Shown: positions 25,242-53,499, numbered from the stretch's first letter. The stretch is DNA of 64,000 nt from an uncultured Thermoleophilia bacterium (GCA_963736645.1 CAVTPJ010000002.1:266779-330778), one strand, 5' to 3'. Program-made: numbers and translations. The notes: a model not told the origin generated them from the sequence alone.

Positions 25242-27626
25242 TCACACGACCCTTGCGCGTCCTTCGACGAAGCGCGCAATCGCCGCCGCCTGGCTCTCCC
25301 CATCCAGCCCCGCCTCCCGCAGCACCGCCTCCCCCTGCCCGCTGCCAAGGTAGTGGCCGTGACGGTAGGGATGCAGGCTTGCGGCCAGGCCGGCGTCGGA
25401 GCGCACCCAGCGGAACAGGGTCGGCAGCGTGAACCCAGTGATGCCGATTGCCTGCCGGCCGCGCTCCTCAGGGAGGATCTCCCGCTGGCGCTCCACCGGA
25501 AGGAGATCGAAGAGCTCGGCGCTGGCGACGTAGTAGACCAACGAGTCGATGCCCTTCTCGGCGAGCAGAGGCAGCGCCTCCTCGACGAAGGCGTAGGTGA
25601 CGGCGCTCTCCTGCAGGACAACGGTCACGTCGGGGGCACCTCTGGGCTCGCGCAGCACGTACACGCCTTCGACTGCGGCGACGGCCGGCGCGAGACCGAG
25701 CGCCTCGCGGTCGGGCACCGTCTCGCTCGGCCTCGTCACGAAGGCGGAGATCACGGCGGGGCGCTTCGAGATCGCCGTCGCGAGCAGCGGCCAGATCTCC
25801 TGTGGCTCCCACGGCGTGAGCGAGATGGCTGTACCCGCGCGGGAAGTCCTGCTGCAGCAACTGCAGGGCCTGGGGGTCGGCGTGAGTCGGGACCGTCCTC
25901 ACCGGTCTTCAGGCCGGCGTGGCCGCAGACGAGCACGATCGGATTGAAGGGCTCACCGCTCGCGGCCTGCCGTGCCTGCTGGCCGATGGCGTGCAGGCGC
26001 GCAGGGATGTGCCCGAGCGGCGCCATGAAGGCGCCGTAGGACGAGCCCACCCCGACGGCGTGGCCGAAGCTGGCGATGCCCGCAAGCACGCCGGTGATGG
26101 CGTCCTCGCAGATGCCGCCGACGGAGAGCTGTCGCGCCTCCGGGTTGACGTGCGCGTTCCAGAAGCCGCTCGGGAAGTCTGCGCCGACCATGTCGACGCT
26201 GGTCGAGCCGAGCAGGTCGGCGGAGGCCGAGAGCACGGCGCCACCGGAGGCCGCGTTCAGGTGGCCGAGAGCGCGGCCAAGCTCGGCGCGCAGCGTCGTG
26301 GACGCGCCGGGCTCGAGGCGCAGCGCGCCGGGGACGCGGTCCCCGGATCCGGCCGCTGCCGCGGCGAAGACGGCGGCCACGTCGGAAGCGACTCGTCGCG
26401 GCGCACGGCTGCGGGCGTCGAGGCGCTCGCGCGCCGCCCGAAGCCGGCCCGCCATGGCCTCGGTCAGCGGCTCGTCGCGCTCGAGCAGCGTGCGCAGCAC
26501 CTCGAGCGCCTCCCACAGGCAGGCCTCGCGCACAGCCGGCCCATCATTCCCGCGCTGGCAGCGCGGATCGCTCGCGTCGCAGGTCGGCAGCGCCAGCTCG
26601 GCGGCCGCGTTACCGACCTATGAGCTCGGCGAGCGCCGCGTAGTAGCCCTCGGAGCAGAGCTTGTGGCCGGCGCCATGGCTTGCCTTGCCCTCGACACCG
26701 TAGCGCCAGCCCTTCACGGTGCGGTAGACGATCGCCGTCGGCTGACCGCTGGTGAGCTCAGCGCGTCGGCGCTGGGCAGCGACGATCTGCTGGAAGTCGA
26801 AGCCGTCGGGCACGTAGATGACGTTCCAGTCGTGCAGGTAGAAGAGCTCGCGCGGGTCCCACTGCACGTAGTCGCCGGGCGCGCTGCCGTCCCGGCAGAC
26901 GCGCTCCGAGTCGATCGAGGCCTGATTCCAGTCGAGGTGCAGGACGACATTGTCGAGTCCGGCGGTGCCGGCGGCCGCTAGTGCTTCAGCCACGCGGCCC
27001 GGAGTGAGCCCGCCTTCGCCCTCGATGATGTGCACGCGCGGCGCGTCCTCACCGTAGCGGTCGCGCGCACCCAAGCCGAGGCCGATGGAGCTGGCGACGC
27101 CGACGCCGGAGGCGCCGGTGGCCAGGCGCACGAACGGGGTCGCCGGCGTCGGGTGCCCATCGAGTGCCCTGGAACCGAACTTGAGGAAGAGCGGCGTCGC
27201 GGTGATCGGGTTGCGGCGAAAGCCAAGCAGGTCCTCAAGCCGCAGGCGCTCGTGGTCGTCTTCGGGAAGGAGCCCCGGGTCCCCGATGCGCGCCAGTTCG
27301 TCGCGCAGCGCCCACATCGCGTACAGGCCCATCGCCTTGTGGCCGGCGGCGTAGGAGACGATATCCGCGTCATCGCGGTCCGGCGTGCCGAGGTCGTAGT
27401 CCAAGGAGTCGTAGAGGAGAGCCGCGACGAAGCGCCCCGAGGAGATCGAACCGCCCGGGTGGCCAGAAGTCGGCACGTAGTTGAAGAGCATTGCGCAGAG
27501 CGAGCGATAGGCGAGGTCCAGATTCTCGAAGGCGGCCAGATCGGCTGCGCCCAGCACCCCGTCTGGAGTCATCACCTCGGTGACGTCGAGGTAGGTCCCC
27601 CGTCTCGCTCCTAAGGTGAATCCCAT
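25242..27626 (-). pseudogene. tkt: Transketolase-family protein with three +1 frameshifts (pseudogene or sequencing indels)
   Basis: SGHPGGSIS, GHPTP, GEGGLTPG...DWNQASID, SADLLGS, GICEDAI, HAGLKTGEDGP-THADPQ spread over four successive frames. Confidence 0.8.
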
Positions 27627-27713: not shown

Positions 27714-28649
27714 CTATCCGCAACGCGACCTCACGCGCTGCATCTCGGGGCAGCTCGCCAGCTTCGCCAGTGTCCTGGCCTCGATCTGGCGGACGTACTC
27801 CCCGGAGCAGCCCAGCTCGATGCCGATTTCCCGGAAGGTCCGCGGCCTGTCGTCCTGAAGGCCGTAGCGCAGGCTCAACACTCCTTGTTCGCGGGCGCTC
27901 AGCGCGGACAGGCCCTCGGACAACCACTCGCCCCGCAGGGCCTCATGGACCTGATCCTCGGTATCGGGTAGAGAACGATCCACGACGTAGTCCGCGAGAA
28001 CCGATTCGTCGTCGCAGCCGGCGGGAGAATCCAGGCTGACCGGCTCTCCGATCATTGCCGCGATGTCCCGCACCCTCTCCGCGGAGATGCCCAGAACGGC
28101 AGCAAGCTCCTCTGGCTTCGGCTCGCGAGCGAGGTCCTGACGGAGCCGGCGCTGCGCTCGTATCAGCTTGCCGATGGCCTCACCCGTGCGCGACGACAGT
28201 CGGACGGCGCGCCCCTGGTCGGACAACGCCCGGGTGACGCCGTGCCTGATCCACCACTTCGCGTACGTACTGAACCTGAACCCCCGACTAGGGTCGAACT
28301 TCTCAACGGCACGGATCAGCCCGAGATTGCCCTCCTGGATGAGATCGAGCAGCGCGAGCCCTCGATTGCAGTAGCGTCGCGCGATAGGCACTACCAGCCG
28401 CAGATTGGCTTGGACGAGCCGGTCCTTCGCGGCTGCGTCACCCTGCTCCACGAGCCGGGCCAGGGAGACCTCCTCCTCGGCGGTCAGCAGAGGCACCCTA
28501 CGTATCTCGCGCAGATACACGTCTACAAGATCACCCTCCGTGGCGTCGAGCTTCTCGTCTGCCCACATCTCCGTCACCATTGGAGCGTGCTCGGAGCCAT
28601 GCGAGACACGACTGCCCAAGGCCGGCTCGTATGCTCTCTTCGCGGTCAT
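27714..28649 (-). CDS. RpoD-like sigma-70 factor lacking region 1.1, with divergent regions 2.4 and 4.2
   Basis: [57 protein letters not shown]; ATGA overlap with arcC (alternative start 28580). Confidence 0.88.
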
Positions 28650-29677
28650 CTTGCCGCAGATGTCACCTGTCGACGGCGCCTTGGCCGTCCGGGGTCCTGA
28701 GAGACGTCCGGCACGATGTGCGTGCCGGCCTTCCCGGCCATCGCCGGGCCGACCTCGGTGAGGCTGGCGATCACGCTCTCGCCGCCGGCGTCGACGAAGC
28801 GCAGGCAGGCCTCGACCTTGGGGCCCATGGAGCCGGCCTTGAAGTGGCCCTCGGCGGCGTAGGCGCGCATCTGGCTGGCGGTGACGCGGGAGAGCGCCTC
28901 CTGCTCGGGGGTGCCGTAGTGCACGTAGGCCTGGGGCACGTCGGTGAGGATGAGCAGGGCGTCGGCGCCGAGCTCGGTGGCGAGCAGGGCGGCGGCGAGG
29001 TCCTTGTCGATCACCGCGTCGATGCCCGAGAGGGCGCCGCGGCTGCGCACCACCGGCACGCCGCCGCCGCCCGAGCAGACGACGAGGGCGCCGTCGGCGA
29101 CCAGGTCGCGCACCGCCTCGAGCTCGACGATCTCCTTGGGCTCGGGGCTGGGCACGACGCGGCGCCAGCCTCTGCCGGCGTCCTCGCGCATGGCGAGGCC
29201 CTCCTCGAGCATCATCTTCCGCGCCTCGGCCTCGGAGTAGAAGGGGCCGACCGGCTTGGAGGGGCTGGCGAAGGCCTTGTCCCGGGGGTCGACGGCGACC
29301 TGGGTGACCAGGGTCACCACCGGCACCTCGAGGCGGCGCTTGCGCAGGTGGTTGGCCAGCGTCTGCGCCGCCATGTAGCCGATCTGGCCCTGGCTCATCG
29401 CGCCGCAGACGTCCATCGGCATCGGCGCCACCGTCTTGGCGGCCAGCGCGTTCTGGATCAGCAGGTTGCCCACCTGGGGGCCGTTGCCGTGGGTGAGCAC
29501 CACGCGCCAGCCCTCCTCGACGAGGGCGACGATGCGACGCATGGCGCCGTCGACGTTGAACAGCTGCTCCTCGAAGGTGCCGACCTGGCCGGGCTGGAGG
29601 ATGGCGTTGCCGCCGAGGGCGACGACGACGGTGGGGATCTGTTGGCCTCGATTGTCTCTCGTTGATGACGTTGTCAT
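28646..29677 (-). CDS. arcC: Carbamate kinase
   Basis: [51 protein letters not shown]. Confidence 0.96.
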
Positions 29678-29972
29678 TGTTCCTCTGGTCGATGGGGAGA
29701 CCGGCGGGCGCGCAGCGCAGGGGGGATACCGCTGGCGCCCGCCGGCCTGTCAGCCGTCCGCAGGACGGGGGATTCCTAGCCGGCCATGCAGGCTGATGTC
29801 GACGAGGCCACACCCAGGCGCCACCAGACCACGATCGAGAGCAACGTCTGCCATCCATTCCTCCTGCTCAACAATCCAAGCCATGAGACCGGTGAGCGAG
29901 TCGGGCTCCTCAGGCGAGCGGGGCCGATGGGGTCGAAAGCTCGCGACCGACCGCAGCCCATGTTCGGGGTGA

Positions 29973-30049
29973 ATACTCTGAGATACCGACGGCCGTGAGA
30001 AGTGGCCGCGGGCACGTCCCAGGGGAGCGACCAATGTGCATTTGCACAT
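29973..30049 (-). promoter_or_regulatory. Promoter/operator module copy A upstream of arcC
   Basis: Palindrome ATGTGCA-NN-TGCACAT (30034-30049), 23-bp block 29996-30018, TTCTCA-N17-GAGTAT; aligns without gaps to 53500-53576. Confidence 0.7.
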
Positions 30050-30141
30050 GAGATGCCGGCAGAGGCCTGGTGGACGAGGCGAGAGCGTGGACCTTCTCAA
30101 GAGCTCTAGGGATCGTGCTGTGCCGAATCGCACTCGAGGAC

Positions 30142-31812
30142 CTAGCTGAGAGTGCGGCCAATCTCCGAGTGCGTGCCACTGGCGGCTGCAAGCAACTCTG
30201 CAGCCTTGAATGAGACGTAAAGCTCCACCATGTCGTCCATTCGGGACAGATCGAGATCAAGCACCGCTTCGATCCGAGCGAGTCTCTTGTACAGGGTGTT
30301 GCGATGCACGAACAGCTCTCGCGTCGTCTCCTGAACTGACGTACCGTTCTTGAAATACGCGCGCAGGGTCTCAACGAGTAAGGTGTGATGAACACGGTCA
30401 TGTTCAATCAACGGACGCACAAGCCGGTCGCTCATGGCCGCCAGTGCGTCCGGACTCTGCCCGCCGAGAAGCCGGAATTCGTTGTCGGCCTCGTCGAACA
30501 GGACGATGCTCTCGTTTACACCTGCCCCGTCGCGAGCAGACCGACAGGCCTCTTGAGCCTGCCTAAGGAGAGACGCCGGCCTAGATGGCCCAACCCAACC
30601 GCCTGAGACGCCGATACAGGTAGTCACCTCAGGGACTCCATCCTGTACCTGCCTCTGGGCCCTTGTGAACGCTTCGAATACGACCTCTCTGCCTGCCTCC
30701 TCAAAGACCGCCAGGACGATGACCTCAGCCTCCATCACGCATGAAATCGCTGAGACATGGGCTGAATGAAGACCCTCCTCTGCGGCGTCTGCGACGCGCC
30801 GTAGAATCGACTCTCGTTCCTGCGGTGATGAGGGAAACTTGCGCCCGGTGTGCTGTCGAGCCTCCACGCCCAGTACCGCCACCCGCCATGGGTCCCCCAG
30901 GTCGATGCCGGCAGCTTGGAGCTTGTCAGTCAGATCATGCGCACCCTCTTCTCGAGAGAGCAGATCCTGGAGGAGCGCCGAAGTCAGGTTCCTGCGAAAC
31001 CGCATCGCCTCACGCTCGGCCAGCAGACTGACCCCGATGAGACGCTGGGCGTGGGACAAGGTGACATCGATGAGGATTGAGGTCACCTGGGCTCGAGGGA
31101 CGACGGCGACGAGCACTCTCGTGAGCTCCCCGTGCACAACGACACGACGCACATAGATGCGCAGTTTCCCCGCCTCGATCACGCCCGTCGGGCCTCCGCT
31201 GAGATGCGCCCCCTCGACGGTGCTCCAGACGGAGCCTATATCGAACTCATCGCCTCGACTGGCTACCGCCAGAATCCCACCCGCGGGATCGAAGAGGATC
31301 ATCGAGAGGTCGAGCGTCTCTGATAGACGCAGGATGATCTCTGCTGCACCCTTCTCATCTACGAGCAGGTCAAGGAGCTGGCTCTGAACGGCGAGAGCGC
31401 GCCGTAACCAGTGCATGTCCATCGAGGACAGTGAGTGGTACACGTACGAGACGATATCTCGCAGTGCGAGCGACCTTGGGGCCTCGACGACGGGCAGGCC
31501 GAGCATCTTGGCGTGGTCGATGGCCTCGGGCGGTACATGGTCAAGATACTCACCAACAGCAACCACCAGCGCAGACGTCTTCCCCGAGATCGTGTCAAGG
31601 TAGCGGTTGGCCGCGTCCGTCGATTCGACCAGGTCCGCCCCATGAGTGATCAGAAGAGTGCCCTCTGTCATCCACTGCGTCGGATCCGAAAGGTCGGAGT
31701 GGTGTACGTGAACAATCACTCTGGAGAGCCCTAGATCTCCCGTGACAACGGTCAGGCCGAACTCAGCCTCGGCGACCAGCTCGCCTAAGGTCAGCTCCTC
31801 GCTGACGGTCAT
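30142..31812 (-). CDS. PucR/CdaR-family transcriptional regulator
   Basis: N-term HVHHSDLSDPTQWMTEGTLLITHG; C-term LVETLRAYF...LFVHRNTLYKRLARIE HTH. Confidence 0.92.
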   Translation of the reverse strand: MTVSEELTLGELVAEAEFGLTVVTGDLGLSRVIVHVHHSDLSDPTQWMTEGTLLITHGADLVESTDAANRYLDTISGKTSALVVAVGEYLDHVPPEAIDHAKMLGLPVVEAPRSLALRDIVSYVYHSLSSMDMHWLRRALAVQSQLLDLLVDEKGAAEIILRLSETLDLSMILFDPAGGILAVASRGDEFDIGSVWSTVEGAHLSGGPTGVIEAGKLRIYVRRVVVHGELTRVLVAVVPRAQVTSILIDVTLSHAQRLIGVSLLAEREAMRFRRNLTSALLQDLLSREEGAHDLTDKLQAAGIDLGDPWRVAVLGVEARQHTGRKFPSSPQERESILRRVADAAEEGLHSAHVSAISCVMEAEVIVLAVFEEAGREVVFEAFTRAQRQVQDGVPEVTTCIGVSGGWVGPSRPASLLRQAQEACRSARDGAGVNESIVLFDEADNEFRLLGGQSPDALAAMSDRLVRPLIEHDRVHHTLLVETLRAYFKNGTSVQETTRELFVHRNTLYKRLARIEAVLDLDLSRMDDMVELYVSFKAAELLAAASGTHSEIGRTLS

Positions 31813-32021
31813 GTTCTCTCCTGCCCGGCCTGTTGTGGTCGCCCGCGCAATTCCCGGCGTGCTGCCTTCAACACATCCGCCGCTGCCCCACGATGCTGAG
31901 CGTGATCCTTGCGAGCGACCGTGCTGTACGTGGTGCCCAAGGTGGGCACGACGCAAGTCTACAGGAACATGCTGCCGACACCGTTCGAGTCCCGCTCATC
32001 AGGCGAGTGCTCGGGACAACC

Positions 32022-33041
32022 TCACTCGGACTCGGCCGCCCCCACCCCTAGGATGCTCGTCAAGAGGGCCATGCGGATCACCACCCCGTATGCCACTGCC
32101 TCGAAGTAGAGCTGGCTGGGAGTCGCGTCGATGCGAAGATCCATTTCGCCGGCCCTGCGAGGCAACGTGTGCGTGACGTAGATCGTCCGGTCTTCGGTCT
32201 GCTGCACACGCACGAGCGTCTCATGGCGAACATAGTAGTTGTCCATGACCTTCTTGAACGCCTCGGCTTCGGACCCCTTGGGTGCGCTGCAGCCGGGCAG
32301 GTAGACCACGTCCACATCGGCAATCAGCTCGTTGAACGTGTCCTGGGTGAGATCGAACTCCTCGCGAAGCACACCTCCGGTGCTGGAGATGCGCTCGATC
32401 ACATCGCTAGGGGTGCGCCTCGACGCCTGGCTGGCCAGAGTCACGTCGGCGCCAAGGCGCGCAAGGCCCTGGGCCATCGAATGACCGGTGCGGGCCTCAA
32501 CGAGATCAGCGCTTGCCACGCAGACCTTCAACCCTTCAACTCTCCCAAAGGTCCGGTAGAGAGTGAACAGGTCGAGGAGGGCTTGAGTCGGATGCTCCCA
32601 GTGGCCCCATCCGGCGTTGATGACCGGACATTCCGAGCTCGGGACTGCCGCACGTGCTTCCTCCGAGTCGAAATGGCGCAGAACGGTCACGTCGGCGTAC
32701 TTCGACACGACCCGCAGCATGTCGGAAAGGCTCTCCTCTTTCGCCGCAGAGGACGTCACTAGGGGGCTGGCCTCCGTGAGGACGGAACCACCCAAGCGAA
32801 GCATCGCAGTCTCAAAGCTGAGCCTGGTGCGGGTGCTGGGCTGGAAGAACAGCGCCAGCAGGACTCTTCCGGAAAGCAGGTCGATCCGAGACCGGCTCCA
32901 TGGCTCGAGCAGGCGGCCCAGCTCGAATAGTCCACGTATCTGGTCGTCGGTGACATCATTGATCGAGTGCAATCCTCGACCCTCGAGGCCGATGGCCGCG
33001 ACGACCGAGCGGACTGCAGTCTCCGTATCACCCTTCTTCAT
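32022..33041 (-). CDS. ATCase-like carbamoyltransferase, candidate ureidoglycine carbamoyltransferase (allantoate phosphorolysis)
   Basis: FFQPSTRTRLSF, SSAAKEESLSD, HPTQALLD, HTLPR; the ATCase aspartate-binding R-x-Q motif is replaced by YLPGCSAP. Confidence 0.85.
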   Translation of the reverse strand: MKKGDTETAVRSVVAAIGLEGRGLHSINDVTDDQIRGLFELGRLLEPWSRSRIDLLSGRVLLALFFQPSTRTRLSFETAMLRLGGSVLTEASPLVTSSAAKEESLSDMLRVVSKYADVTVLRHFDSEEARAAVPSSECPVINAGWGHWEHPTQALLDLFTLYRTFGRVEGLKVCVASADLVEARTGHSMAQGLARLGADVTLASQASRRTPSDVIERISSTGGVLREEFDLTQDTFNELIADVDVVYLPGCSAPKGSEAEAFKKVMDNYYVRHETLVRVQQTEDRTIYVTHTLPRRAGEMDLRIDATPSQLYFEAVAYGVVIRMALLTSILGVGAAESE

Positions 33042-33073
33042 CTCGTTCCCTTCCACCAGCTGCCTGCGTGACC

Positions 33074-33862
33074 TTACGCCCCTGCGGCCGAGTCTGGAGC
33101 GGCGAAGAACCCGTCTCTGTTGATGTCCTTGTACAGAAGATACGAAGCCGGTGACGATCCGGTGGCCCAGAACGACTGGGGACAGTACGGCGCCATGTAG
33201 ATGTAGTCACCCTTGAACACTTGGTGGTATCGCCCGGCCAAGTAGTACACGCCCTGCCCGTCCAGCATCAGCAGGCCGTGTTCCTGATGGTGCATCTCGA
33301 TGATGCCAATCGACCCGCCCGGATCGGCCGTCAACACGTTCATCGCCATGTCGTACGACGGGTCTGCGGTTGGGAGGAGCTCCTGGTACGTGTAGGAGGC
33401 CGGAGCTTCGGGCTTGATGCTGGGAACGTCCGACTGATGCCCTGCGACGGGATTCGGCATCGGCACTCCACGGACCGGGTCATACCTGCGCTTCGTCCAA
33501 AGGGTCTGCGAAGGCTCCGCACCCGACGCCGAGAGTGCGAACTCCGCGCCCAACGGGAAGTAGCAGAAAGCTCCGGGGGCCATCGGGTGCGCGTCGCCCG
33601 CAGCCTCGACGACAGCTTCGCCGCGCACCTGGTAGACAAAATTCTCGAAGTCCCCGCCGAGCGGCTGCAGGCTGCGTCCGCGAGTCCCGAAGTCGAGCAG
33701 GTATTGGCCCAGACACGCGCCCGGGAACCTTGGTGTCGCCAGCGGGCGAGCTATCGTGTCCTCGAAGTAGGGAAGCCGGTTGTCGACGAGGTTCTCCGGA
33801 GTGATGAGCGCATACGAGTCGGTCACGATGCCCCGTGTTGAAGCCGCTGGCGTGGTTTCCAT
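33074..33862 (-). CDS. allE: (S)-ureidoglycine aminohydrolase (bicupin)
   Basis: TRG....YALITPEN, YDMAMNVL, EMHHQEHGLLML.GQGVY, GDYIYMAPYCPQ, YLLYKDINRD. Confidence 0.88.
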   Translation of the reverse strand: METTPAASTRGIVTDSYALITPENLVDNRLPYFEDTIARPLATPRFPGACLGQYLLDFGTRGRSLQPLGGDFENFVYQVRGEAVVEAAGDAHPMAPGAFCYFPLGAEFALSASGAEPSQTLWTKRRYDPVRGVPMPNPVAGHQSDVPSIKPEAPASYTYQELLPTADPSYDMAMNVLTADPGGSIGIIEMHHQEHGLLMLDGQGVYYLAGRYHQVFKGDYIYMAPYCPQSFWATGSSPASYLLYKDINRDGFFAAPDSAAGA

Positions 33863-33950
33863 GTGACGATCCTTTCGGTTGGGTTCGGACACCCCGTTCA
33901 GTCCTCGCCGAAACGACACTTCCGGCGCCGTGACAATCGCTCTGGCTGCT

Positions 33951-34478
33951 CTACTGTCCGCCTTGGTAGAACCTCACGCGTTCATGCAGGAGGGACGATT
34001 CGGGATGACCGGGCTTCTCCTGGGCCGGGTAGCCGACGGCGATGATCGCCTCAACGACCGTGTCCGTGTCCAGCCCCAGTACACCCACAACGTAGTCGTT
34101 CGCCGACTGACCTGCGTCGTGGTCACGCAGCCGGATCTGGACCCAGCAGCTGCCCAGCCCAAGGTCGGCGGCGGCCAGGTGGACGATGAGGGAGGCGATG
34201 GAAGCATCCTCCACCCAGACGTCCGAGCGCTTCGGATGCGCACAGATTACGATGGCCAGCGGGGCGGTCCCGATGAAGGATGCCCCGATCGCCTTCGCCT
34301 CTGCGAGCTGAAGCAGCTTCGACCGATCGGTGACGACGCAGAACTCCCAGGGACGCCTGTTGGACGCAGACGGTGATCGCAGCATCGCTTCGACGAGACT
34401 GTCAACCATCTCCCGTTCCACGGGTCGGTCTCGGAACTCGCGGATGCTCCGCCGCGATCGCAACAAGTCGATGAACAT
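33951..34478 (-). CDS. Nitroreductase-family flavoprotein
   Basis: RRSIREF, SPSASNRRPWEF, AAADLGLGSCWV, IAVGYP. Confidence 0.9.
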   Translation of the reverse strand: MFIDLLRSRRSIREFRDRPVEREMVDSLVEAMLRSPSASNRRPWEFCVVTDRSKLLQLAEAKAIGASFIGTAPLAIVICAHPKRSDVWVEDASIASLIVHLAAADLGLGSCWVQIRLRDHDAGQSANDYVVGVLGLDTDTVVEAIIAVGYPAQEKPGHPESSLLHERVRFYQGGQ

Positions 34479-34598
34479 CGGCTCTCCCTTCCCTTCATCC
34501 TGCCGGGCGGCCGCACCTGGACCCTTCGGCGATTCAAGACATTCGCCACGCAGGTGGTCAGCAGCGCACGCAGAGAGTACGTTCTGTGGCGTGGCGCG

Positions 34599-35957
34599 CT
34601 AGTCGCCGCCTCGCCGCACCACCGGGGTCAACAACTGCCCGCGCGCCTCGCCGACGGGATGACCGTCTGCGACGACAGTGCGCCCGCGCGAGACCGTCCA
34701 GCGCACACGGCCGCGCAGCGGGACGCCGACCAAGCCACTGTGACGGTGCCGATACTGAAGCTCTTGCGCGGTCAGATTCCAACGTTCATCGAGATCCACG
34801 ATGGCAAAGTCCGCGTCCACGCCGGGAGCGATGGCCCCCTTGCCTGGCAGACCGAAGCGGGTGGCAACGTGACCGGTCACAGCCGCGACCGCCGCTTCGA
34901 GCCCCGCCGTGTCCGCACACTTGCTGAGGAGGACCGGGAGCGTGGTCTGGCAGCCGGAGATGCCGCCCCAGATGGCGAAGAAGTCGTCGCCGGTCTTCTC
35001 GTCCTCTGGACTTGGCGAGTGATCCGACGTGACGATCGCCCGGGGGTCGGACGCGACGTACTCCCACAGGCGATCCCGATTGAGCGCATCCCTCATCGGA
35101 GGCGAACACTTCGCTGGCGCACCGAGACGTTCAATGTCGTCTTCGACCAGCACCAGGTAGTGGCTCGCAACCTCCGCGCTGACATCGACTCCGCGTCTCT
35201 GAGCCTCGCGCACCAGCTCGAGCCCCCTCGCGGTGCTCACATGCGCGATATGCAGCGGACAGCCGGTGTCGCCGGCAAGCTCTATCGCCCGGGCGATGGC
35301 CGTGGTCTCGGCGACCGCGGGACGTGAGCCGACGTAGTCGCATGGGCCCACCCGCCCTTGGGAGCGTGCGCGGCGCGCCAGGGCCTCGGTTATCGAGTCG
35401 CTCTCAGCGTGCACCGCGACGATTGCGCCGAGTTCGGCACAGCGCTTCATACCCTCCCATAGAGTCATCTCATCCACGGACGGAAAGTCGAGCATCCCCG
35501 AATCGCACATGAACGCCTTGAACCCGATGACTCCTCGCTCGTGGAGTTCGCCGAGGCAATCGAGATTGCCGGGGACCAGACCGCCCCACAGCGCAAAATC
35601 GACGCGCGAATGTGCTCTGGCTGCCTGCAGCTTGAGATCGAAGGCTGCGCCGGTGACGGTCGTCGGCTGGGAGTTCAGGGGCATGTCGAAGTAGCTGGTC
35701 ATGCCCCCGCAGGCGAGCGCGGTCGACGCGGTCCTAAACCCTTCCCAGTCGGTCCGGCCGGGTTCATTGCAGTGCACATGGGCGTCTATGCCCCCCGGAA
35801 GGACATGCAGGCCGCCCGCATCGAGCTCGTGGGCCGCCGAGCCCGCGAGATTCGGACGCACCTCCACGATCGCTGCATCGCACACCCCGATGTCGGCGAC
35901 ATTCACCCCTTCGGGCGCGACCACCGTCCCCCCCCTGATAATGAGATCGTAATCCAC
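34599..35957 (-). CDS. allB: Allantoinase (metal-dependent cyclic amidohydrolase)
   Basis: DAHVHCNEPGRTDWEGF, DMPLNSQP, GFKAFMCDSG, HIAHVS, KCSPPMR, SDHSPS, WGGISGCQ. Confidence 0.9.
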   Translation of the reverse strand: MDYDLIIRGGTVVAPEGVNVADIGVCDAAIVEVRPNLAGSAAHELDAGGLHVLPGGIDAHVHCNEPGRTDWEGFRTASTALACGGMTSYFDMPLNSQPTTVTGAAFDLKLQAARAHSRVDFALWGGLVPGNLDCLGELHERGVIGFKAFMCDSGMLDFPSVDEMTLWEGMKRCAELGAIVAVHAESDSITEALARRARSQGRVGPCDYVGSRPAVAETTAIARAIELAGDTGCPLHIAHVSTARGLELVREAQRRGVDVSAEVASHYLVLVEDDIERLGAPAKCSPPMRDALNRDRLWEYVASDPRAIVTSDHSPSPEDEKTGDDFFAIWGGISGCQTTLPVLLSKCADTAGLEAAVAAVTGHVATRFGLPGKGAIAPGVDADFAIVDLDERWNLTAQELQYRHRHSGLVGVPLRGRVRWTVSRGRTVVADGHPVGEARGQLLTPVVRRGGD

Positions 35958-36073
35958 GGCTCAGTCAGGTGGCGGGTCCGGCGTGGAGCGGCGAACGCCT
36001 TGAGCGATCGTGGCCGCACCTTGGCGCATGTCCGCGCTGCGCCCGGCTGTTCGTCGTCCATGGTCAAACCCGT

Positions 36074-36781
36074 TCATCTCATCCCGACCTCACCGGACTC
36101 CGGAAGCTTGAACGCGCGAGCCTTTGATGTCTTGAGCCCATTCACGATCAATCCGTGAAGAAGCGTCGCGGCGGCAGGCACAGCCTCCACCACCGGCACG
36201 CTCAGCCGCGATTCGAGATGTTCACGCAGATTCACCAAGCCTCCGCAACCGAGGCAGAGGACCTCCGCCTTGTCAAGCTCTATGGCCAGCCGTCCCTCGC
36301 GCTCAAGTGCAGCCGCTGCTGCTTCCGGATCGCGATGCGCCTCGAGCACGCTGAGGCCGGTCGCACGCACCGACGCACAGCGCGACTCGACGCCGTGAAG
36401 CCGCAGCCCATCTTGGATAGGCGGGACGCCACGTTCCAGTGTGGTGAGGACCGAAAACCGGCGCCCGAGGGTCATGGCGGTCAGGAAGCTGGATTCGCCA
36501 ATGCCGACGACAGGGGAGGACGTCAGTTCACGGGCTGCGAACAGACCTGGGTCGCCAAAGCAGCCGACGATCGCACCGTCGAAGGAGCCCGCGTGTGACG
36601 TCAAGGCGTCGACAACCGCCATCGCACCCAGTACGTCGTCACGGTAGCTGTCGATGGCAGCGACTCCACGCGTGGCAGTCACCCCCATCACCTCGGCATC
36701 GGGAATCACGCGTGCGGCAGCCGAGAGCATCTGGTCGGTCATGGCCACGGTCATGTTCGGATTGATCAGCAGGATTCGCAT
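36074..36781 (-). CDS. Hydantoin/allantoin racemase (Asp/Glu racemase family)
   Basis: LINPN, GCFGDPGL, VVGIGESS, LGCGG catalytic Cys motifs. Confidence 0.9.
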   Translation of the reverse strand: MRILLINPNMTVAMTDQMLSAAARVIPDAEVMGVTATRGVAAIDSYRDDVLGAMAVVDALTSHAGSFDGAIVGCFGDPGLFAARELTSSPVVGIGESSFLTAMTLGRRFSVLTTLERGVPPIQDGLRLHGVESRCASVRATGLSVLEAHRDPEAAAAALEREGRLAIELDKAEVLCLGCGGLVNLREHLESRLSVPVVEAVPAAATLLHGLIVNGLKTSKARAFKLPESGEVGMR

Positions 36782-37070: not shown

Positions 37071-37907
37071 TCACTCTGTGCCTGCCCCGGTCGTGTCATC
37101 CTTGAGCCGTGCGGGAGTCCAGCCTACGCCAGGGACCGCCGCCCGCAGTCTGCGGGTGTACTCGTGGCTCGGCTGATCCAGGACCGTCGCCGTAGGACCC
37201 GATTCGACAACGGAACCGCGATACATCACCAACGCCCTGTCGCTCACCTGCCGAACAACCGCGAGGTCATGCGAGATGAAGATGTAGGAGATACCGGTCT
37301 GCTCGCGGATATCGGCGAGGAGATTGAGGACCTGGGCCTGCACGGAGACGTCGAGGGCCGCGACGGCCTCGTCGAGGATGAGCACCCGGGGCTTCGCGGC
37401 GAGCGCCCGGGCGATCGCCACGCGCTGGCGCTGCCCGCCGGACAGGTCGCGAGGCCGCTGGCCTATGTGGTGGCTCTGTAGGCCGACCTGGTCAAAGAGC
37501 TCGGCGACACGCTCGGCGCACGCAGCGCGACTTCCACCAAAGTGCCGCCGGACGACTTCTCCAACGGCGGCTCCGACCCGCTGTTGTGGATCGAGGGACG
37601 TGTACGGGTCCTGGAAGACGATCTGGAGCTCCCTGCCTCGCCGGCGGCGTTCCGCCGTGCGGACACGGGTCCCGACGCGCTCGCGTCCGCAGACGCGGAT
37701 GACGCCTGAGGTAGCGCGCTCGAGCCCGATGAGCATCAGAGCTACCGTCGTCTTGCCGGAGCCCGACTCGCCGACGATGGCTAGGGATTCTCCCTCGGTG
37801 ATGGAAAACGACACGTCGGCGACAGCGACGTTCTCACTGCCGGTGCGACGGTTGTGGAAGACCCTGCGCAGGTCTACCGCTTCGACGACTGTCGTCGTGT
37901 CATTCAT
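37071..37907 (-). CDS. Opp/Dpp-type ABC transporter ATPase (OppF-like)
   Basis: GESGSGKTT, QIVFQDPY, LSGGQRQR, LDEAVAALDVSVQAQ. Confidence 0.92.
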   Translation of the reverse strand: MNDTTTVVEAVDLRRVFHNRRTGSENVAVADVSFSITEGESLAIVGESGSGKTTVALMLIGLERATSGVIRVCGRERVGTRVRTAERRRRGRELQIVFQDPYTSLDPQQRVGAAVGEVVRRHFGGSRAACAERVAELFDQVGLQSHHIGQRPRDLSGGQRQRVAIARALAAKPRVLILDEAVAALDVSVQAQVLNLLADIREQTGISYIFISHDLAVVRQVSDRALVMYRGSVVESGPTATVLDQPSHEYTRRLRAAVPGVGWTPARLKDDTTGAGTE

Positions 37908-38905
37908 GACGACGATGCCTCGAGGGAGCTGTTCGGAAGCGACCCTCGCAACTCGACGGCTCGGTGGCACACGGCGAAGGCGCCGTCGATCTGTACGACA
38001 GCAGGGACTTCGCGCCTGCAGAGGTCAAGCGCATACCCGCATCGTGGTGCAAACGCGCAGCCAGCGCCGGCCTCGAAGGCAGCGATGGGGCGACCGGGAA
38101 TCACGCACAGCCGCCGGTCGGTGTGCTCGATGCTTGGCCTGGAACAGAGAAGGCCCGACGTGTAGGGATGCAGTGGTGATGCGTGGAGGGCGGCCGACTC
38201 CTGCATCTCCACCAGACAGCCCGCGTACATCACGGCCATCCGGTCGCACGTCGCGACCGCGAGCTCGAGATCGTGGGTGATGAAGAGGAGTGCGAGCTGG
38301 CGCTCACGCCTCAGCCGCGTGAGGATCGTCACCACTTCCGCCTGCGTCGTCACATCGAGAGCGGTGGTCGGCTCGTCGGCGAGGAGCAGCTTGGGGTCCG
38401 CGGCCAGCGCTGCTGCGATCATCACCCGCTGGAGGAGCCCGCCGGAAAGCTGATGCGGGTACTGGGTGAGGCGGTCTTCGCCGTCGGCGATGCCCACCTC
38501 CGCCAGCAACTCGATCGCGCGTCGTCTGGCCTCTGCGAGCGAGACGCCACCGATCTCGCATTGCGCCTCGGTGAGGAAGTCGCCGATGGTCCGCACTGGA
38601 TTCGTGTGCGCCCGCGGATCCTGGAAGATCATGGCGACGTGCGAGGCGCGGAAGTCGCGCAGCTCGTTGCGATTCATGCGCAGGACGTCACTGCCGTCGT
38701 AGAGGATCTCGCCCTCGATCCTGGCGCCCGTCGGGAGGAGGCGCATGATGGAGCGCGCCGTCATCGACTTGCCGCACCCGGATTCGCCAACGAGCCCAAG
38801 GGATTCCCCTTCACCGACGGAGAAAGAGACGCCATTGATGATGGTCCGGGTGCCATCATCGTTCCCCACCGTCACGTTGATGTCGTGGACGTCGAGCAAT
38901 GCCAT
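37904..38905 (-). CDS. Opp/Dpp-type ABC transporter ATPase (OppD-like)
   Basis: GESGCGKS, YPHQLSGG, DEPTTALDVT, HPYT, C-terminal Cys cluster. Confidence 0.92.
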   Translation of the reverse strand: MALLDVHDINVTVGNDDGTRTIINGVSFSVGEGESLGLVGESGCGKSMTARSIMRLLPTGARIEGEILYDGSDVLRMNRNELRDFRASHVAMIFQDPRAHTNPVRTIGDFLTEAQCEIGGVSLAEARRRAIELLAEVGIADGEDRLTQYPHQLSGGLLQRVMIAAALAADPKLLLADEPTTALDVTTQAEVVTILTRLRRERQLALLFITHDLELAVATCDRMAVMYAGCLVEMQESAALHASPLHPYTSGLLCSRPSIEHTDRRLCVIPGRPIAAFEAGAGCAFAPRCGYALDLCRREVPAVVQIDGAFAVCHRAVELRGSLPNSSLEASSS

Positions 38906-38906
38906 C

Positions 38907-39788
38907 TCAGTCACGCCTCTCGGTGACAGCAAGGCGGTCGCCGAGCACGTTGAAGGAAACGACGACGAAGATGATGAGCGCGCCCGCGTAGAGTCCCTCT
39001 GCAGGATGCCCTCTGAGTGCGTCCTGGAGACCGGTGGCCACTGACACCCCCCAGTCGGATGTAGGAGGCTGGACGCCGAGGCCGAGGAAGGAGATCGCGG
39101 CGAGTTCCACGACGGCGAACCCGAGTGAAGCTACGGCCTGTGCCACGATCAACGGGCGAAGGTTTGGAAGGATATGCATCGTGCAGATGCGCAGACCGGA
39201 GAAGCCCTGCACGAGAGCCGCCGAGATGTACGGGAGGTTTCTCTCCCGAAGAGCCGCGCCACGGACCACACGCGCGACGTAGGGAGTGTAGGCGATGGCA
39301 AGACCGACAATCGCGGCCACCAGCCCAGCGCCGTAGAGCGCGACGGCGACCAACGCGAAGATGATGCCCGGAACGGAGAACATGACGTCGAGGATCCGGG
39401 AGGTCACCCCGTCGACGATCCCTCGCATCCACGCGGCTCCGATGCCGATCGCAGAACCGATGACCGTGGACACGGCAATCACGAGCAGGGGGCCGATGAA
39501 GGTCGTGCGACCGCCCCAGATCAGCCGCGACAAGAGGTCGCGCCCGAGGCCGTCCGTCCCGAGGGGGTGTTGCGCCGAGGGGCCCGCAAACACGTTGACA
39601 AGGTCGGGGGCGTTGGGGTCATACGGTGCTACCCATGGCGCGAAAGCCGCGGCCAAAGCCAACACCAGGATCACGACAACAGCGATGAGTCCAGCCACAC
39701 CGAGGGTCGCGCGCAAGCTGCGGAAGGCGCCACGCTTGCGAGCGCCGGCAGCGGGCACGTTATCGATGGTCTCCACGTTGGCAGACAT
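38907..39788 (-). CDS. Opp/Dpp-type ABC permease (OppC-like)
   Basis: HPLGTDGLGRDLLSRL, EAA-like loop PYISAALVQG, LSFLGLG-like ISFLGLGVQPP. Confidence 0.92.
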   Translation of the reverse strand: MSANVETIDNVPAAGARKRGAFRSLRATLGVAGLIAVVVILVLALAAAFAPWVAPYDPNAPDLVNVFAGPSAQHPLGTDGLGRDLLSRLIWGGRTTFIGPLLVIAVSTVIGSAIGIGAAWMRGIVDGVTSRILDVMFSVPGIIFALVAVALYGAGLVAAIVGLAIAYTPYVARVVRGAALRERNLPYISAALVQGFSGLRICTMHILPNLRPLIVAQAVASLGFAVVELAAISFLGLGVQPPTSDWGVSVATGLQDALRGHPAEGLYAGALIIFVVVSFNVLGDRLAVTERRD

Positions 39789-40744
39789 CAGGCGTTCGGG
39801 TCGGCGCCGAGCTCGAGCCGCGGGTCGATCACGGTGTACAGGATGTCTGTGATGAGATTGATGATGACGAAGATGAGCACGAGGATCAGCACAACGGCCT
39901 GCACGATCGGGAAATCCTTCTGGAGGATGGCCAGGACGAGCAACGACCCCAATCCATCAAGACCGAAGATGTTCTCCACAATGACCGCCCCAGCCACGAG
40001 CGTACCGATGGTCAGGCCCGTCACCGTGACGATGGGGATCATCGCGTTGCGCAGGACGTGCCGGCGAAGGATCGTCCGCTCCGACAGGCCCCGGCCCCTA
40101 GCCGTCATCACATGCTCTCGGCCCAGAACGTCGCGCACCGAACTCCGGGTGATCCGGGCGAGATAGGCGGCGCTCGCCACCGCGAGCGTGATCGCCGGCA
40201 GCGTCAGATGGGTAAGGCGACCCCACGCACCCTCTCCCGACCCGTAGACGGGGAACCACCCCAATCGGACGCACAGAAACGTGATCAGATACGTGCCCAG
40301 CACGAAGGCCGGCGTGGCGATCCCGATGGTCGCCGCTATGGTGATCGAGTGGTCGACGACTCCGGGGCGAAGCGCCGAAAGCGTACCGAACGCGATGCCG
40401 AAGATGATGATCAGAATGGTGGAGTACAGGACGAGGAGCGTCGTCGTCGCCAAGCGCCCCCCCACCAGATCCATGACATCCTGATTGAACACGATTGAAC
40501 GACCGAGATCGCCGTGGAAGACGCCGGAGAGCCAGTCCCAGTACTGCCTGAGGAACGAGTCGTCGAGGTGATACCGAGCCTTGACGGCGGCGATCTGCTC
40601 AGGCGAAGTCGTCCGGTTGCCCAGTACGAATGAGAGGACGCTGCCCGGCGCGATGTACATGAGGCTGAACACCGCGAAGGACGCGACGAGCAAGGTGATG
40701 CCGAGTCCCGCGACGCGCCGCGTGAGGAATACGGTGAAGCCCAT
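39788..40744 (-). CDS. Opp/Dpp-type ABC permease (OppB-like)
   Basis: GDLGRS, LPAITL, HVMTARGRGL, HVLRNAMIP, ENIFGLDGLG. Confidence 0.92.
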   Translation of the reverse strand: MGFTVFLTRRVAGLGITLLVASFAVFSLMYIAPGSVLSFVLGNRTTSPEQIAAVKARYHLDDSFLRQYWDWLSGVFHGDLGRSIVFNQDVMDLVGGRLATTTLLVLYSTILIIIFGIAFGTLSALRPGVVDHSITIAATIGIATPAFVLGTYLITFLCVRLGWFPVYGSGEGAWGRLTHLTLPAITLAVASAAYLARITRSSVRDVLGREHVMTARGRGLSERTILRRHVLRNAMIPIVTVTGLTIGTLVAGAVIVENIFGLDGLGSLLVLAILQKDFPIVQAVVLILVLIFVIINLITDILYTVIDPRLELGADPNA

Positions 40745-40748
40745 CGTC

Positions 40749-41888
40749 TCAGGACGGGATCGACGACCGGTCGAGGACGGACTCGAGCGCGTCGATCTCG
40801 CGCTCGAACTGCCGCCGCATGGCTGCCCGCTCCTCCGCAGGCAGCCATGCGGCATCGACCCCGTTCAGCACTATCTCGCGTGCCACCTCCGGGCCCTTCG
40901 CCAGCCCGATGATCCCGCGACTGTACTCACTGCCGAGGTCTGACCCCGGGAAGCAGGTGCTGTCGGACGACAGCGTCACGCGAAGCCCAGCGTCGATCAT
41001 CGTGCGAATGGGGTTGACCGCGAGGTCACCCCAGCCGTACTCCCGCGTGAACGAGGGGAGAGTCGCACTGGTGCTGCAGCAGAAGAAGACGCCCTCCGCC
41101 ACACATCGTTCGATCATCGCTGGGTCGTGGATGACCTGGTAGCCGTGGTCGATCCGTTCGCAGCCAAGCATGTCCAGGGCGATCGCGATGTTGGCCGCCG
41201 TCTCATCGCTGTTCTCGGCCACGTGCGCCGTGCGATGAAGGCTGGCGCGGTTAGCCAAGGCAAATGCCTCCGCGTACCGTTCCGGCGCCTCCCGGGCGTC
41301 GGTCGTGAGCGAGTCGAGGCCGATGCCGATGACCTCATCCCGCGGGTGCTCGATCATCACATCCAACAGTTCCCGGGCCTGTTCCGGCGAGTATGCCCTG
41401 TTGATGCAGGCGACCAGGCGACAGGTGACACCGAGATCCTGCTCTGCCGCGCGCACGCCGTCGATGAGGCCATCAACCATTGTCGCGTAAGGGACCCCGT
41501 CCGCAAGATGGTCCAGCGGCATGAAGAACATCTCCCGATAGCGGAGATTGCCCGTGCGCTTCTCGTCCGCGAGCGTCTCGTAGACGATTCTCGCGAAATC
41601 GTCGCGCTGGCGAGTGATGTGCAGGAACGGCGTCATCAACCTGAGGAACTCGACAAGGTCGGTCGAGCTGTAGAAGAAGCTCTCCGGCCCGGCCTCAGGC
41701 TCCACCGAATGGAATACGCGATAGGGGTCCGCCGCATCGTCCGATCCGAGACTGACACCGTACTTCCGCGCCAGTTCCAGCGCCGTTGTTGCGCGCATCG
41801 TGCTCTCGAGATGTATGTGGAGTTCGGCCTTCGGCAGGCGCCGAAGAAACTCCGCGTAGTCGATGCGCGAGGAGCCCTCTTCGCTCAC
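40749..41888 (-). CDS. Adenosine/adenine-deaminase-family amidohydrolase with atypical active-site motifs
   Basis: LPKAELHIHLE, HVAE, RIDHG, SSDS in place of xSDDP; GTGA overlap with oppA. Confidence 0.85.
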   Translation of the reverse strand: MSEEGSSRIDYAEFLRRLPKAELHIHLESTMRATTALELARKYGVSLGSDDAADPYRVFHSVEPEAGPESFFYSSTDLVEFLRLMTPFLHITRQRDDFARIVYETLADEKRTGNLRYREMFFMPLDHLADGVPYATMVDGLIDGVRAAEQDLGVTCRLVACINRAYSPEQARELLDVMIEHPRDEVIGIGLDSLTTDAREAPERYAEAFALANRASLHRTAHVAENSDETAANIAIALDMLGCERIDHGYQVIHDPAMIERCVAEGVFFCCSTSATLPSFTREYGWGDLAVNPIRTMIDAGLRVTLSSDSTCFPGSDLGSEYSRGIIGLAKGPEVAREIVLNGVDAAWLPAEERAAMRRQFEREIDALESVLDRSSIPS

Positions 41889-43531: not shown

Positions 43532-43650
43532 CACGCTCCTTTTCACGAGTGACCCCCCCCTGTCGCTCTCAGCCGATCGAGTATGCCACACGACGAATGT
43601 CCCGCGATGTCGTGCCAGAAAGACCCTACGTCGGTGATCCGTCGCCGCAG

Positions 43651-43666
43651 ATAGGCAGATGCCCAC
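43651..43666. promoter_or_regulatory. Third copy of the palindromic operator-like box, in the oppA/hydantoinase divergent region
   Basis: ATAGGCAGATGCCCAC matches the reverse complement of 53561-53576 at 14/16 positions. Confidence 0.5.
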
Positions 43667-43861
43667 TCGTCACCGCGGTCAGTGAGCAGCAGCACAAAGG
43701 TCCCGATCAGGCTGGAATCCGGCACGAAGCCGGTCGCTCGGCGGCCATCAAGGAGGGACGATTCGATGCGGATGGCCTTCCGTGACACGTGAAACTCAAG
43801 CGACTACGCTACCGTCGAAATGGGGCCCGGCATGAGCGGGGAGGCAAGGACTGGTGGAAAC

Positions 43862-47307: not shown

Positions 47308-47308
47308 C

Positions 47309-47857
47309 TCAGGATCCCTCGTCCGTTGGCATGCCCAGCCGAGCCCAGCCTTCTCGCCGGCGATTCACCTCGTAGCCTGACGCGCCCAAGGGCGCAACGG
47401 ACGTGGAGTCGAGGGCGCGCACGGGACACACTTGCACGCAGGCGAGCTCGCCGTCGTCGTGACGCCAGTAAGGGGTGTCGCGGCACAGGTCGCACTTCGT
47501 CGACGTCCTTGACGCCGCGTCGAACCGGACGCGGCTGGGAGAGAAGTGGCAAGCCCCGATGCACTTCCGGCATCCTGTGCAGCTATCGCGATCGACGTAC
47601 CGCACGTTGAAGTGCTGCTGGTCGATCGCCAAGGCCCCCGCGGGACAGGCGGTGACGCAGGCGGCGTCCCTGCACTGGCGGCATGTGCCGAGAAGAATGT
47701 CCGTAGGAAACGAGCCGAACACGTCCTCTACGATGAGGATTCGTGCCGTGTGGAGCTGCGCCCGCCCCTCGTGCGCAAGCGCGCACATCAGCATGCAACT
47801 GCGGCAACCCGTGCACTTCCGTGGATCGCCCACGAGGTACAGGTGAGCCTCCTGCAT
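47309..47857 (-). CDS. 4Fe-4S dicluster electron-transfer subunit of the AOR
   Basis: CTGCRSCMLMC, CRQCRDAACVTACP, CTGCRKCIGAC, KCDLC, CVQVCP. Confidence 0.9.
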   Translation of the reverse strand: MQEAHLYLVGDPRKCTGCRSCMLMCALAHEGRAQLHTARILIVEDVFGSFPTDILLGTCRQCRDAACVTACPAGALAIDQQHFNVRYVDRDSCTGCRKCIGACHFSPSRVRFDAASRTSTKCDLCRDTPYWRHDDGELACVQVCPVRALDSTSVAPLGASGYEVNRRREGWARLGMPTDEGS

Positions 47858-48027
47858 GTCGCACTCGCCCTCGATGCCATCTGGACGGCCGACGTTCGCC
47901 ATCATGCAACCCCGTCTCCCGATGCCCCCAAGTGCCTGACTCACGATAGCAGCAGGGCATCACTTCGAACGGTCCGCAGAGCTGCCGCCGAACCGTCAGC
48001 CGCCCGCACCCGGCCGGCCCGCGGCGC

Positions 48028-49023: not shown

Positions 49024-49059
49024 GGCTCCTCCGCACGCGCCCCAAGGGTGCGCCGTCCC

Positions 49060-50256: not shown

Positions 50257-50316
50257 TTCTCCTCCTCGTTGGCATCCGTCCACGCTTCTCTCGCCGATCC
50301 AGTGTGGCTTGCCGGA

Positions 50317-53370: not shown

Positions 53371-53499
53371 TTCCCGTTCTCCTTTCGCACTGGCCCCAGC
53401 TCTCTATCTCGCCTCGACTCGGTGAGACTCATGGGTGGAGATTCACCGGCGAAGGTGACCGTTAGTGGTGCCTGACGCGCAGAATGACCTTCGTCGAGC

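Follow-up and report, generated by a model that had tools for sequence, protein, structure and literature searches.

The minus strand of a 64,000-nucleotide stretch of DNA from an uncultured Thermoleophilia bacterium (GCA_963736645.1 CAVTPJ010000002.1:266779-330778; hereafter the window) carries a cluster of genes for allantoin catabolism, one of which resembles the gene for aspartate carbamoyltransferase (ATCase). In the order of transcription, this cluster comprises a racemase, an allantoinase, a nitroreductase-family protein, AllE, the ATCase-like protein, a PucR-family regulator and, after a gap of 465 nt, a carbamate kinase (Table 1). The AllE reading frame stops 32 nt ahead of the ATG of the ATCase-like gene, which has the allantoinase gene 1.5 kb upstream and the carbamate kinase gene 2.3 kb downstream of it, and the genes of the cluster are presumably co-transcribed. 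An earlier interpretation made from the sequence alone (the sequence-only reading) had placed the first five of these genes in one direction, with correct coordinates and a correct gene list; it omitted the regulator and the carbamate kinase that lie on the same strand. Here, we argue that the ATCase-like gene (32022-33041) likely encodes a ureidoglycine carbamoyltransferase (UGTCase), a catabolic member of the ATCase/ornithine carbamoyltransferase (OTCase) superfamily that would split allantoate with phosphate.

The likely start of this gene is the ATG at 33041, with GGAAGGGA ahead of it, which gives the 339-residue product recorded in the protein collection. Matches to PF02729 (OTCace_N, 141 bits) and PF00185 (OTCace, 47 bits) give the protein the two-domain fold of the superfamily. 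Its best family match is the ATCase equivalog model TIGR00670 (E = 5e-66), yet the score of 222.9 falls under the cut-off of 236.95, and that against NF002032 is 193 where the cut-off is 263. NCBIfam has no model for the UGTCase family, and public sources label its members either "aspartate carbamoyltransferase" or "hypothetical". The translation contains STRTR, HPTQ, HTLPR and ARTGHS, together with the YLPGCSAP that, as the sequence-only reading had noticed, replaces the aspartate-binding R-x-Q segment. In alignments with solved ATCases (E. coli 1D09, M. jannaschii 2RGW and P. abyssi 1ML4), L-P-G-C-S-A-P-K stands opposite V-T-R-I-Q-K-E-R, so that G-C-S replaces R-I/V-Q. The two-domain fold, STRTR, the lysine of the 80s loop (K84), R105, H134 and Q137 (in HPTQ), R167 and the L-P-R loop all have their equivalents; overall identity reaches about 37% with the archaeal ATCases.

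The family match and the names given to its relatives would favor a second, divergent ATCase devoted to pyrimidine synthesis. We find this scarcely credible, given the score below the model's cut-off, the catabolic context of the gene, and the presence elsewhere on the contig of a canonical pyrB (C2:94096-95019, with RIQKER and HPGP), which makes the window gene an extra copy. This pyrB adjoins a dihydroorotase-like gene (92780-94051) that is probably pyrC, and the genome carries seven carbamoyltransferase paralogues in all. Moreover, the loss of the aspartate-binding pair is not peculiar to the window protein. Across 54 members of its clade, P254-G255-C-S257-A-P259 takes the place of T228-R229-V-Q231-K-E233 (G255 and S257 are conserved at 95% or more), which puts glycine and serine where PyrB has R229 and Q231. 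Other substitutions conserved in the clade are Q72 for E50, E107 for G85, G191 for V169 and T297 for P266, with an insertion of one residue after HTLP.

In the same 54 proteins, the residues of the carbamoyl-phosphate site (S74-T75-R76-T77-R78, R127-H128, H155-P156-T157-Q158 and L298-P299-R301) are at least 95% conserved, and K106 and R189-T190, which correspond to the alpha-carboxylate residues of ATCase, are conserved to the same degree. The enzyme would thus keep the chemistry of carbamoyl transfer and the grip of arginine and lysine on the alpha-carboxylate, with a remodelled pocket in place of that for the beta-carboxylate of aspartate. The lost Arg-x-Gln pair would fit ureidoglycine, which bears a neutral ureido group as its side chain, if the structural roles are carried over from ATCase. 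The group name "pseudo-ATCase", chosen by the authors who described it, might suggest an inactive or regulatory pseudo-enzyme that has merely been retained in the cluster; we give this little credence, because the carbamoyl-phosphate-binding residues are so strongly conserved in orthologues from several phyla and because an assayed orthologue is active.

That orthologue is Rxyl_2847 of Rubrobacter xylanophilus, one of the pseudo-ATCases of Barba et al. (2013; PMC4016543), to which the sequence-only reading had correctly pointed. It converts allantoate to ureidoglycine with arsenate and, with phosphate, yields carbamoyl phosphate; its activity rose from 0.05 umol/min/mg at 37 C to 5.9 at 60 C, with nothing detected when both arsenate and phosphate were omitted (PMC4016543). 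Over 311 residues, the window protein is 64% identical to Rxyl_2847 (Q1AS69, taken from Additional file 5 of that paper); its identity is 46% with D8GTE4 of Clostridium ljungdahlii, about 32% with the Nocardioides and marine pseudo-ATCases, and at most 37% with true ATCases. It shares HTLPR, VYLPGCSAPKG, ARTGHSMA and GEMDLRID with Q1AS69, and D8GTE4 carries HSLP, GCS and VYLPGCSVPVG. Both motifs of the UGTCase group, H-[ST]-L-P (where ATCases have H-P-[LG]-P) and G-x-[SC] (where they have R-x-Q), are therefore present in the window protein.

The phylogeny that the sequence-only reading had called for agrees with these motifs. In a maximum-likelihood tree, the window protein, 21 orthologues, Q1AS69 and D8GTE4 form one clade of 24 rows with support of 100/99 and a stem of 2.61 substitutions per site, and Q1AS69 is nested within it, next to a Rubrobacteraceae sequence. 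Outside this clade fall the genome's own PyrB, five other ATCases, the marine pseudo-ATCases with HPLA and that of Nocardioides. Table 1 of PMC4016543 might suggest that the window protein belongs with the Nocardioides subgroup, which is unassayed; this was ruled out, as Rxyl_2847 itself carries HTLP and GCS. The row numbers of that table disagree with the group numbers of the text; the sequences place the Rubrobacter enzyme at the "row 2" motifs, H[ST]LP and GX[SC], and the alignment and tree labels (Additional files 5 and 6) assign the HPLA/AIA signature to the marine group.

The genes that surround the UGTCase gene suggest a coherent route. The racemase would supply (S)-allantoin, and the allantoinase would open its ring to give allantoate. 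The UGTCase, in place of AllC, would then convert allantoate and phosphate into (S)-ureidoglycine plus carbamoyl phosphate. Carbamate kinase would use the latter with ADP to form ATP, CO2 and NH3, and AllE would deaminate ureidoglycine to (S)-ureidoglycolate, these two steps pulling an equilibrium that otherwise favors carbamoylation. AllE is specific for ureidoglycine, and we infer both the activity of the window protein and a stereochemistry suited to feeding AllE. The sequence-only reading had proposed the same phosphorolysis and the ATP that follows from it, and orthology to Rxyl_2847, the position in the clade, the gene context and the lack of AllC and allantoicase (see below) now support this proposal. 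It had also called the route rare, which holds for annotation; the route is not new, as it was assayed in 2013 and ureidoglycine carbamoyltransferase was counted among the established catabolic transcarbamylases in a 2018 review (PMC6022934). The enzyme class has thus been known since 2013, and the window gene adds a member to it.

Table 1. Positions, strands and family evidence for the features of the window discussed in the text
Feature	Position	Strand	Evidence or remark
Split transketolase-like pair	25751-27626		Downstream of carbamate kinase and sigma-factor genes
RpoD-like sigma factor	27714-28649		Directly after carbamate kinase gene
Carbamate kinase	28646-29677	minus	TIGR00746, 413 (cut-off 358)
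Upstream element, copy 1	29963-30050	minus	Ahead of carbamate kinase gene
PucR-family regulator	30142-31956	minus	PF07905, PF13556, PF17853; 65 nt downstream of UGTCase gene
UGTCase orthologue (ATCase-like)	32022-33041; reading frame open from GTG at 33056	minus	PF02729, PF00185; 339 residues from ATG 33041
AllE, (S)-ureidoglycine aminohydrolase, bicupin	33074-33919; probable ATG 33862	minus	TIGR03214, 237.4 (cut-off 200)
Nitroreductase-family protein	33951-34478	minus	PF00881, 85.6 bits
Allantoinase AllB	34599-35957	minus	TIGR03178, 504.6 (cut-off 357.85)
Asp/Glu/hydantoin-family racemase, candidate allantoin racemase	36074-36781; reading frame to 36841, ATG at 36781	minus	PF01177, 171 bits
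Peptide/nickel-type ABC importer with embedded adenosine-deaminase-family gene	37071-43666	minus	Two ATPases, two permeases, SBP_bac_5 binding protein; PF00962 and PF00496 matches
Adenosine-deaminase-family gene	40749-42005		199.8 (adenosine deaminase cut-off 216.55)
D-hydantoinase/dihydropyrimidinase	43820-45238	plus	TIGR02033, 522 (cut-off 393)
KARI-like reductase	48028-49023	minus	Family assignment
DAO-family FAD oxidoreductase	49060-50283	minus	Family assignment
EtfA	50317-51288	minus	Family assignment
EtfB	51285-52115	minus	Family assignment; after TC2
TC2, N-acetylornithine carbamoyltransferase (AOTCase)-like knotted carbamoyltransferase	52315-53370	minus	Nearest model NF003384, 254.7 (under cut-off 288)
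Upstream element, copy 2	53490-53575	minus	Ahead of TC2 operon
FtsW	53983-55443		ftsW side of the cell-division genes

This context recurs well beyond the window. A scan of species genomes gave 74 loci with proteins 56-76% identical to the window protein, and these span Chloroflexota, Thermoleophilia, Acidimicrobiia, Actinomycetaceae (Actinomyces, Trueperella), Propionicimonas, Armatimonadota, Spirochaetota and others. Because the clustering of open reading frames was disturbed by spurious opposite-strand frames in high-GC DNA, neighbors were counted by tblastn with the window proteins on the 46 loci that span 15 kb or more. Beside the orthologue, an allantoinase was found at 38 of these loci, carbamate kinase at 30, AllE at 27, the racemase at 24 and glyoxylate carboligase at 18. 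Two of the neighboring allantoinases (loci L013 and L075) pass TIGR03178 with 518 and 569 (cut-off 358), and the glyoxylate carboligase neighbors that were tested pass their model (1040, cut-off 791). The closest orthologue (locus L009) also has a PucR homologue beside it, 67% identical to that of the window. Four window genes were rejected as conserved parts of the system, as their homologues lie at none or one of the 46 loci: the nitroreductase (none), the adenosine-deaminase-like gene, the aldehyde:ferredoxin oxidoreductase and the D-hydantoinase.

The last of these counts bears on the suggestion that the substrate is an N-carbamoyl amino acid derived from a hydantoin other than allantoin. 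Such a compound could come from the D-hydantoinase encoded 11 kb away (Table 1), and the racemase in the operon is of hydantoin type. With a hydantoinase homologue near only 1 of the 46 orthologues, however, against an allantoinase near 38, and with the ureidoglycine-specific AllE adjacent, we consider this very improbable.

The enzymes that might otherwise complete the pathway were sought throughout the assembly, which comprises 3.2 Mb and is only 85% complete. The sequence-only reading had noted no allC in the operon, and this extends to the assembly as a whole, in which the best match to the AllC/UAH/carbamoylase family TIGR01879 scores 25 bits (cut-off 204); allantoicase (PF03561) gave no match. 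The assembly likewise has no recognizable ureidoglycolate lyase, ureidoglycolate amidohydrolase, AllD or AllG, and neither glyoxylate carboligase, tartronate semialdehyde reductase nor Hyi was found in it; hence the fate of ureidoglycolate is not explained by the known enzymes. The searches for AllC-family enzymes, allantoicase, AllE, ureidoglycolate lyase, AllD and AllG were extended to 19 other orthologue-bearing genomes. Among the resulting 20, allantoicase is present in 1, ureidoglycolate lyase in 2, AllD in 4, AllG in 7 and AllE in 10, in every case of AllE inside the UGTCase cluster. In the six Actinomycetaceae genomes with an orthologue, AllC, allantoicase, AllE, ureidoglycolate lyase, AllD and AllG are all missing. 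Their clusters hold the orthologue with racemase, carbamate kinase, NCS1 permease and allantoinase genes, and after these a split transketolase and Hyi-like, tartronate-semialdehyde-reductase-like and glyoxylate carboligase genes. The orthologue is thus their sole candidate for handling allantoate, which favors allantoate over a later intermediate as the physiological substrate.

Several points weigh against a UGTCase working in this cluster as described. Enzymes of the TIGR01879 family score above the cut-off in 5 of the 20 orthologue-bearing genomes, and an AllC gene could be missing from the incomplete window assembly. The carbamate kinase gene lies behind the regulator gene and shares an upstream element (see below) with another operon of the window, that of the carbamoyltransferase TC2; the operon from racemase to UGTCase is without this element. 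Scans with sigma-70 promoter and terminator consensus sequences gave nothing above chance and nothing that could be assigned. Finally, among the orthologues, activity has been measured for Rxyl_2847 alone, and this enzyme was apparently assayed on allantoate only, not on oxalurate, ureidoglycolate or carbamoyl-aspartate (PMC4016543). This last circumstance would leave room for an enzyme that phosphorolyses a later ureido intermediate, either ureidoglycolate or oxalurate (as an oxamate carbamoyltransferase), with allantoate handled by an unrecognized enzyme. An oxamate carbamoyltransferase of the transcarbamylase fold has never been identified (PMC6022934), and the lack in this genome of the known ureidoglycolate-consuming enzymes points the same way. 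Nonetheless, this alternative appears improbable: the 64%-identical orthologue was measured making ureidoglycine and carbamoyl phosphate from allantoate; oxalurate could not form in the orthologue-bearing Actinomycetaceae, which are without AllC, AllE and AllD; and TC2 is a better candidate for a step at oxalurate or ureidoglycolate.

Around the orthologue, the genes fall into two arrangements. No locus has both AllE (27 loci) and glyoxylate carboligase (18 loci) beside the orthologue, and only one of the 46 has neither (Fisher p = 7e-12, a value that overstates the evidence as the loci are phylogenetically non-independent). The window is of the AllE form, in which a second, AOTCase-like carbamoyltransferase (TC2) is present at 23 of the 27 loci and a KARI-like reductase at 19, together with ETF alpha and beta, a DAO-family flavoenzyme and often FixC and FixX. 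TC2 is found at no locus without AllE and never with glyoxylate carboligase. In the window, the genes for TC2, EtfB, EtfA, the DAO-family protein and the KARI-like reductase (48028-53370) form a set that is syntenic with AllE and UGTCase in related loci from many phyla. Some loci show further peculiarities. In one (L010; G010:C13:244537-245266), the AllE gene is broken into two pieces in different frames (168 and 43 bits). Another has a second and very divergent pATC-like gene (L034:2713-3807, 30% identity) 5 kb from the UGTCase orthologue. An ArgE/DapE/YgeY-like M20 hydrolase gene lies between allantoinase and AllE at 11 of the 46 loci, all of them in Chloroflexota (for example, L013:13465-14733); the window is without it.

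TC2 belongs to a large and tightly conserved family, and its best solved relative is the AOTCase of Xanthomonas. Seven further contexts of TC2 homologues were sampled. Two hold UGTCase-like, AllB-like, cupin, ETF, DAO and KARI genes, and one combines a PuuE-type deacetylase-family gene with racemase, PucR, carbamate kinase and FixCX genes but has no UGTCase; the remainder have xanthine-dehydrogenase-type, arginase-family, ADI/DDAH-like, creatininase or adenine deaminase genes. TC2 is probably a catabolic transcarbamylase for some ureido compound, and its contexts are too mixed to fix the substrate. An element of about 90 nt stands only ahead of the TC2 operon and ahead of the carbamate kinase gene. 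Its 28-nt core, GACGTGCCCRCGGCCACTTCTCASGGCC, occurs twice in the window where none is expected. In front of the core lies a palindrome, TGTGCA-NN-TGCACA, of which only the copy at the carbamate kinase gene is perfect. The sharing of this element suggests a common control of a producer of carbamoyl phosphate and of its consumer.

These observations raise the prospect of an allantoin fermentation in which both ureido groups of allantoate are recovered as carbamoyl phosphate, with a yield of two ATP per allantoin. In such a scheme, the UGTCase would take the first group and TC2 the second, with ureidoglycolate or oxalurate as its substrate; if oxalurate, the KARI-like reductase or a DAO/ETF dehydrogenase would first oxidize ureidoglycolate. 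The co-occurrence of TC2 with AllE, the shared element, the lack of a known ureidoglycolate enzyme in this genome and the TC2 homologue found with a PuuE-type gene, racemase, PucR and carbamate kinase all speak for it. Against it are the TC2 homologues of about 75% identity that adjoin arginase-family, ADI/DDAH-like and creatininase genes, and the presence of AllD and AllG in some genomes of the AllE type. On balance, we regard this scheme as doubtful; were it true, TC2 would be an oxamate (or ureidoglycolate) carbamoyltransferase of the transcarbamylase fold, an enzyme sought since the 1960s.

The Rubrobacter cluster is the closest known counterpart to that of the window. Besides belonging to the same clade and having HTLP and G-C-S, Rxyl_2847 also has allantoinase and carbamate kinase as neighbors and comes from a genome without AllC. 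However, gene order differs, and the Rubrobacter cluster adds uricase, HIU hydrolase, OHCU decarboxylase and xanthine dehydrogenase where the window has a transporter. Rubrobacter also lacks AllE, in place of which its authors proposed an asparaginase-like neighbor or spontaneous decay; in the window, a bona fide AllE lies directly upstream. Compared with PyrB, in addition to its glycine and serine for R229 and Q231, its glutamine for E50, its threonine for P266 and the insertion after HTLP, the window enzyme is predicted to work in the catabolic direction. It would fill the same place as AllC, an M20-family enzyme of unrelated fold, in leading from allantoate to the (S)-ureidoglycine used by AllE, but the hydrolysis catalyzed by AllC wastes the ureido group as CO2 and NH3, whereas phosphorolysis would conserve it as carbamoyl phosphate and hence ATP.

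Pairing the phosphorolysis of a ureido compound with carbamate kinase to yield ATP is a feature shared with catabolic OTCase, putrescine transcarbamylase and YgeW, although these act on other substrates and belong to the OTCase or knotted branches rather than the ATCase branch. YgeW, which converts 2,3-diureidopropionate to albizziin (bioRxiv 10.1101/2025.05.19.654654), likewise takes one of the two ureido groups of a purine-derived diureido acid. The oxamic transcarbamylase AllFGH of E. coli (PMC11326118) also draws carbamoyl phosphate from a ureido acid derived from allantoin, for the carbamate kinase AllK; but it is an unrelated enzyme of three subunits that acts three steps later, on oxalurate, and AllG was not found in the genome studied here.

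Because the UGTCase family is misnamed and has no NCBIfam model, allantoin catabolism looks broken wherever AllC is absent. Its recognition restores a complete allantoin route in many genomes of Chloroflexota, Thermoleophilia, Actinomycetaceae and other groups, one that turns a hydrolytic step into a substrate-level phosphorylation, a change of importance to anaerobes that live on the products of purine breakdown. The AllE-linked form supplies the ureidoglycine-consuming step left open for Rubrobacter, the mutually exclusive AllE plus TC2 and glyoxylate-carboligase forms point to two fates of the C2 skeleton, and TC2 becomes a concrete candidate for a further catabolic transcarbamylase. In the literature searched, there appears to be no earlier report of AllE as the direct partner, of so wide a distribution, of the lasting misannotation, of two downstream modules that exclude each other or of TC2 as a lead for the unexplained step.

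The origin of the cluster is suggested by its base composition. The GC content of the window is high, about 0.70-0.73, with third-position GC (GC3) of 0.9 or more, except in a block of lower GC at roughly 30-54 kb (also delimited as about 25200-53900), where GC is 0.61-0.67 and GC3 near 0.8. The UGTCase orthologue is absent from 18 genomes of the same genus and 12 of the same class, in which the top match is 41% identical; the nearest sequences come from an uncultured Thermoleophilia genome (76-77%) and from Chloroflexota. On account of the lower GC and the lack of the orthologue in these 30 relatives, in which it contrasts with the Rubrobacter cluster, the block has the appearance of an acquired island within the dcw region; it sits between cell-division genes of the murG side and of the ftsW side. 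The carbamate kinase gene has a host-like GC3 of 0.95, unlike the island, and its body (28705-29632) is 99.8% identical at the DNA level over 928 bp to a second copy (C2:453569-454496) that lies 157 kb away beside another OTCase-like paralogue. The two copies could be the result of a recent duplication, of gene conversion or of an assembly effect.

With an ABC importer next to the cluster and no OHCU decarboxylase found in the 85%-complete assembly, the cell probably imports allantoin or a related compound rather than making it from urate. The importer may serve in the uptake of the substrate; its genes are not conserved beside the UGTCase orthologues of the 46 loci. The adenosine-deaminase-family gene is lodged between its binding-protein and permease genes, and beyond the importer (43820-47944), the D-hydantoinase gene converges on genes for the aldehyde:ferredoxin oxidoreductase and a 4Fe-4S protein, a group that the UGTCase orthologues do not keep as neighbors. 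At the other end of the cluster, the carbamate kinase gene is followed directly by that of the RpoD-like sigma factor and then by the split transketolase-like pair, which has a 77%-identical paralogue on contig C9; the UGTCase clusters of Actinomycetaceae likewise hold a split transketolase beside the orthologue, along with Hyi-like, GlxR-like and glyoxylate carboligase genes.

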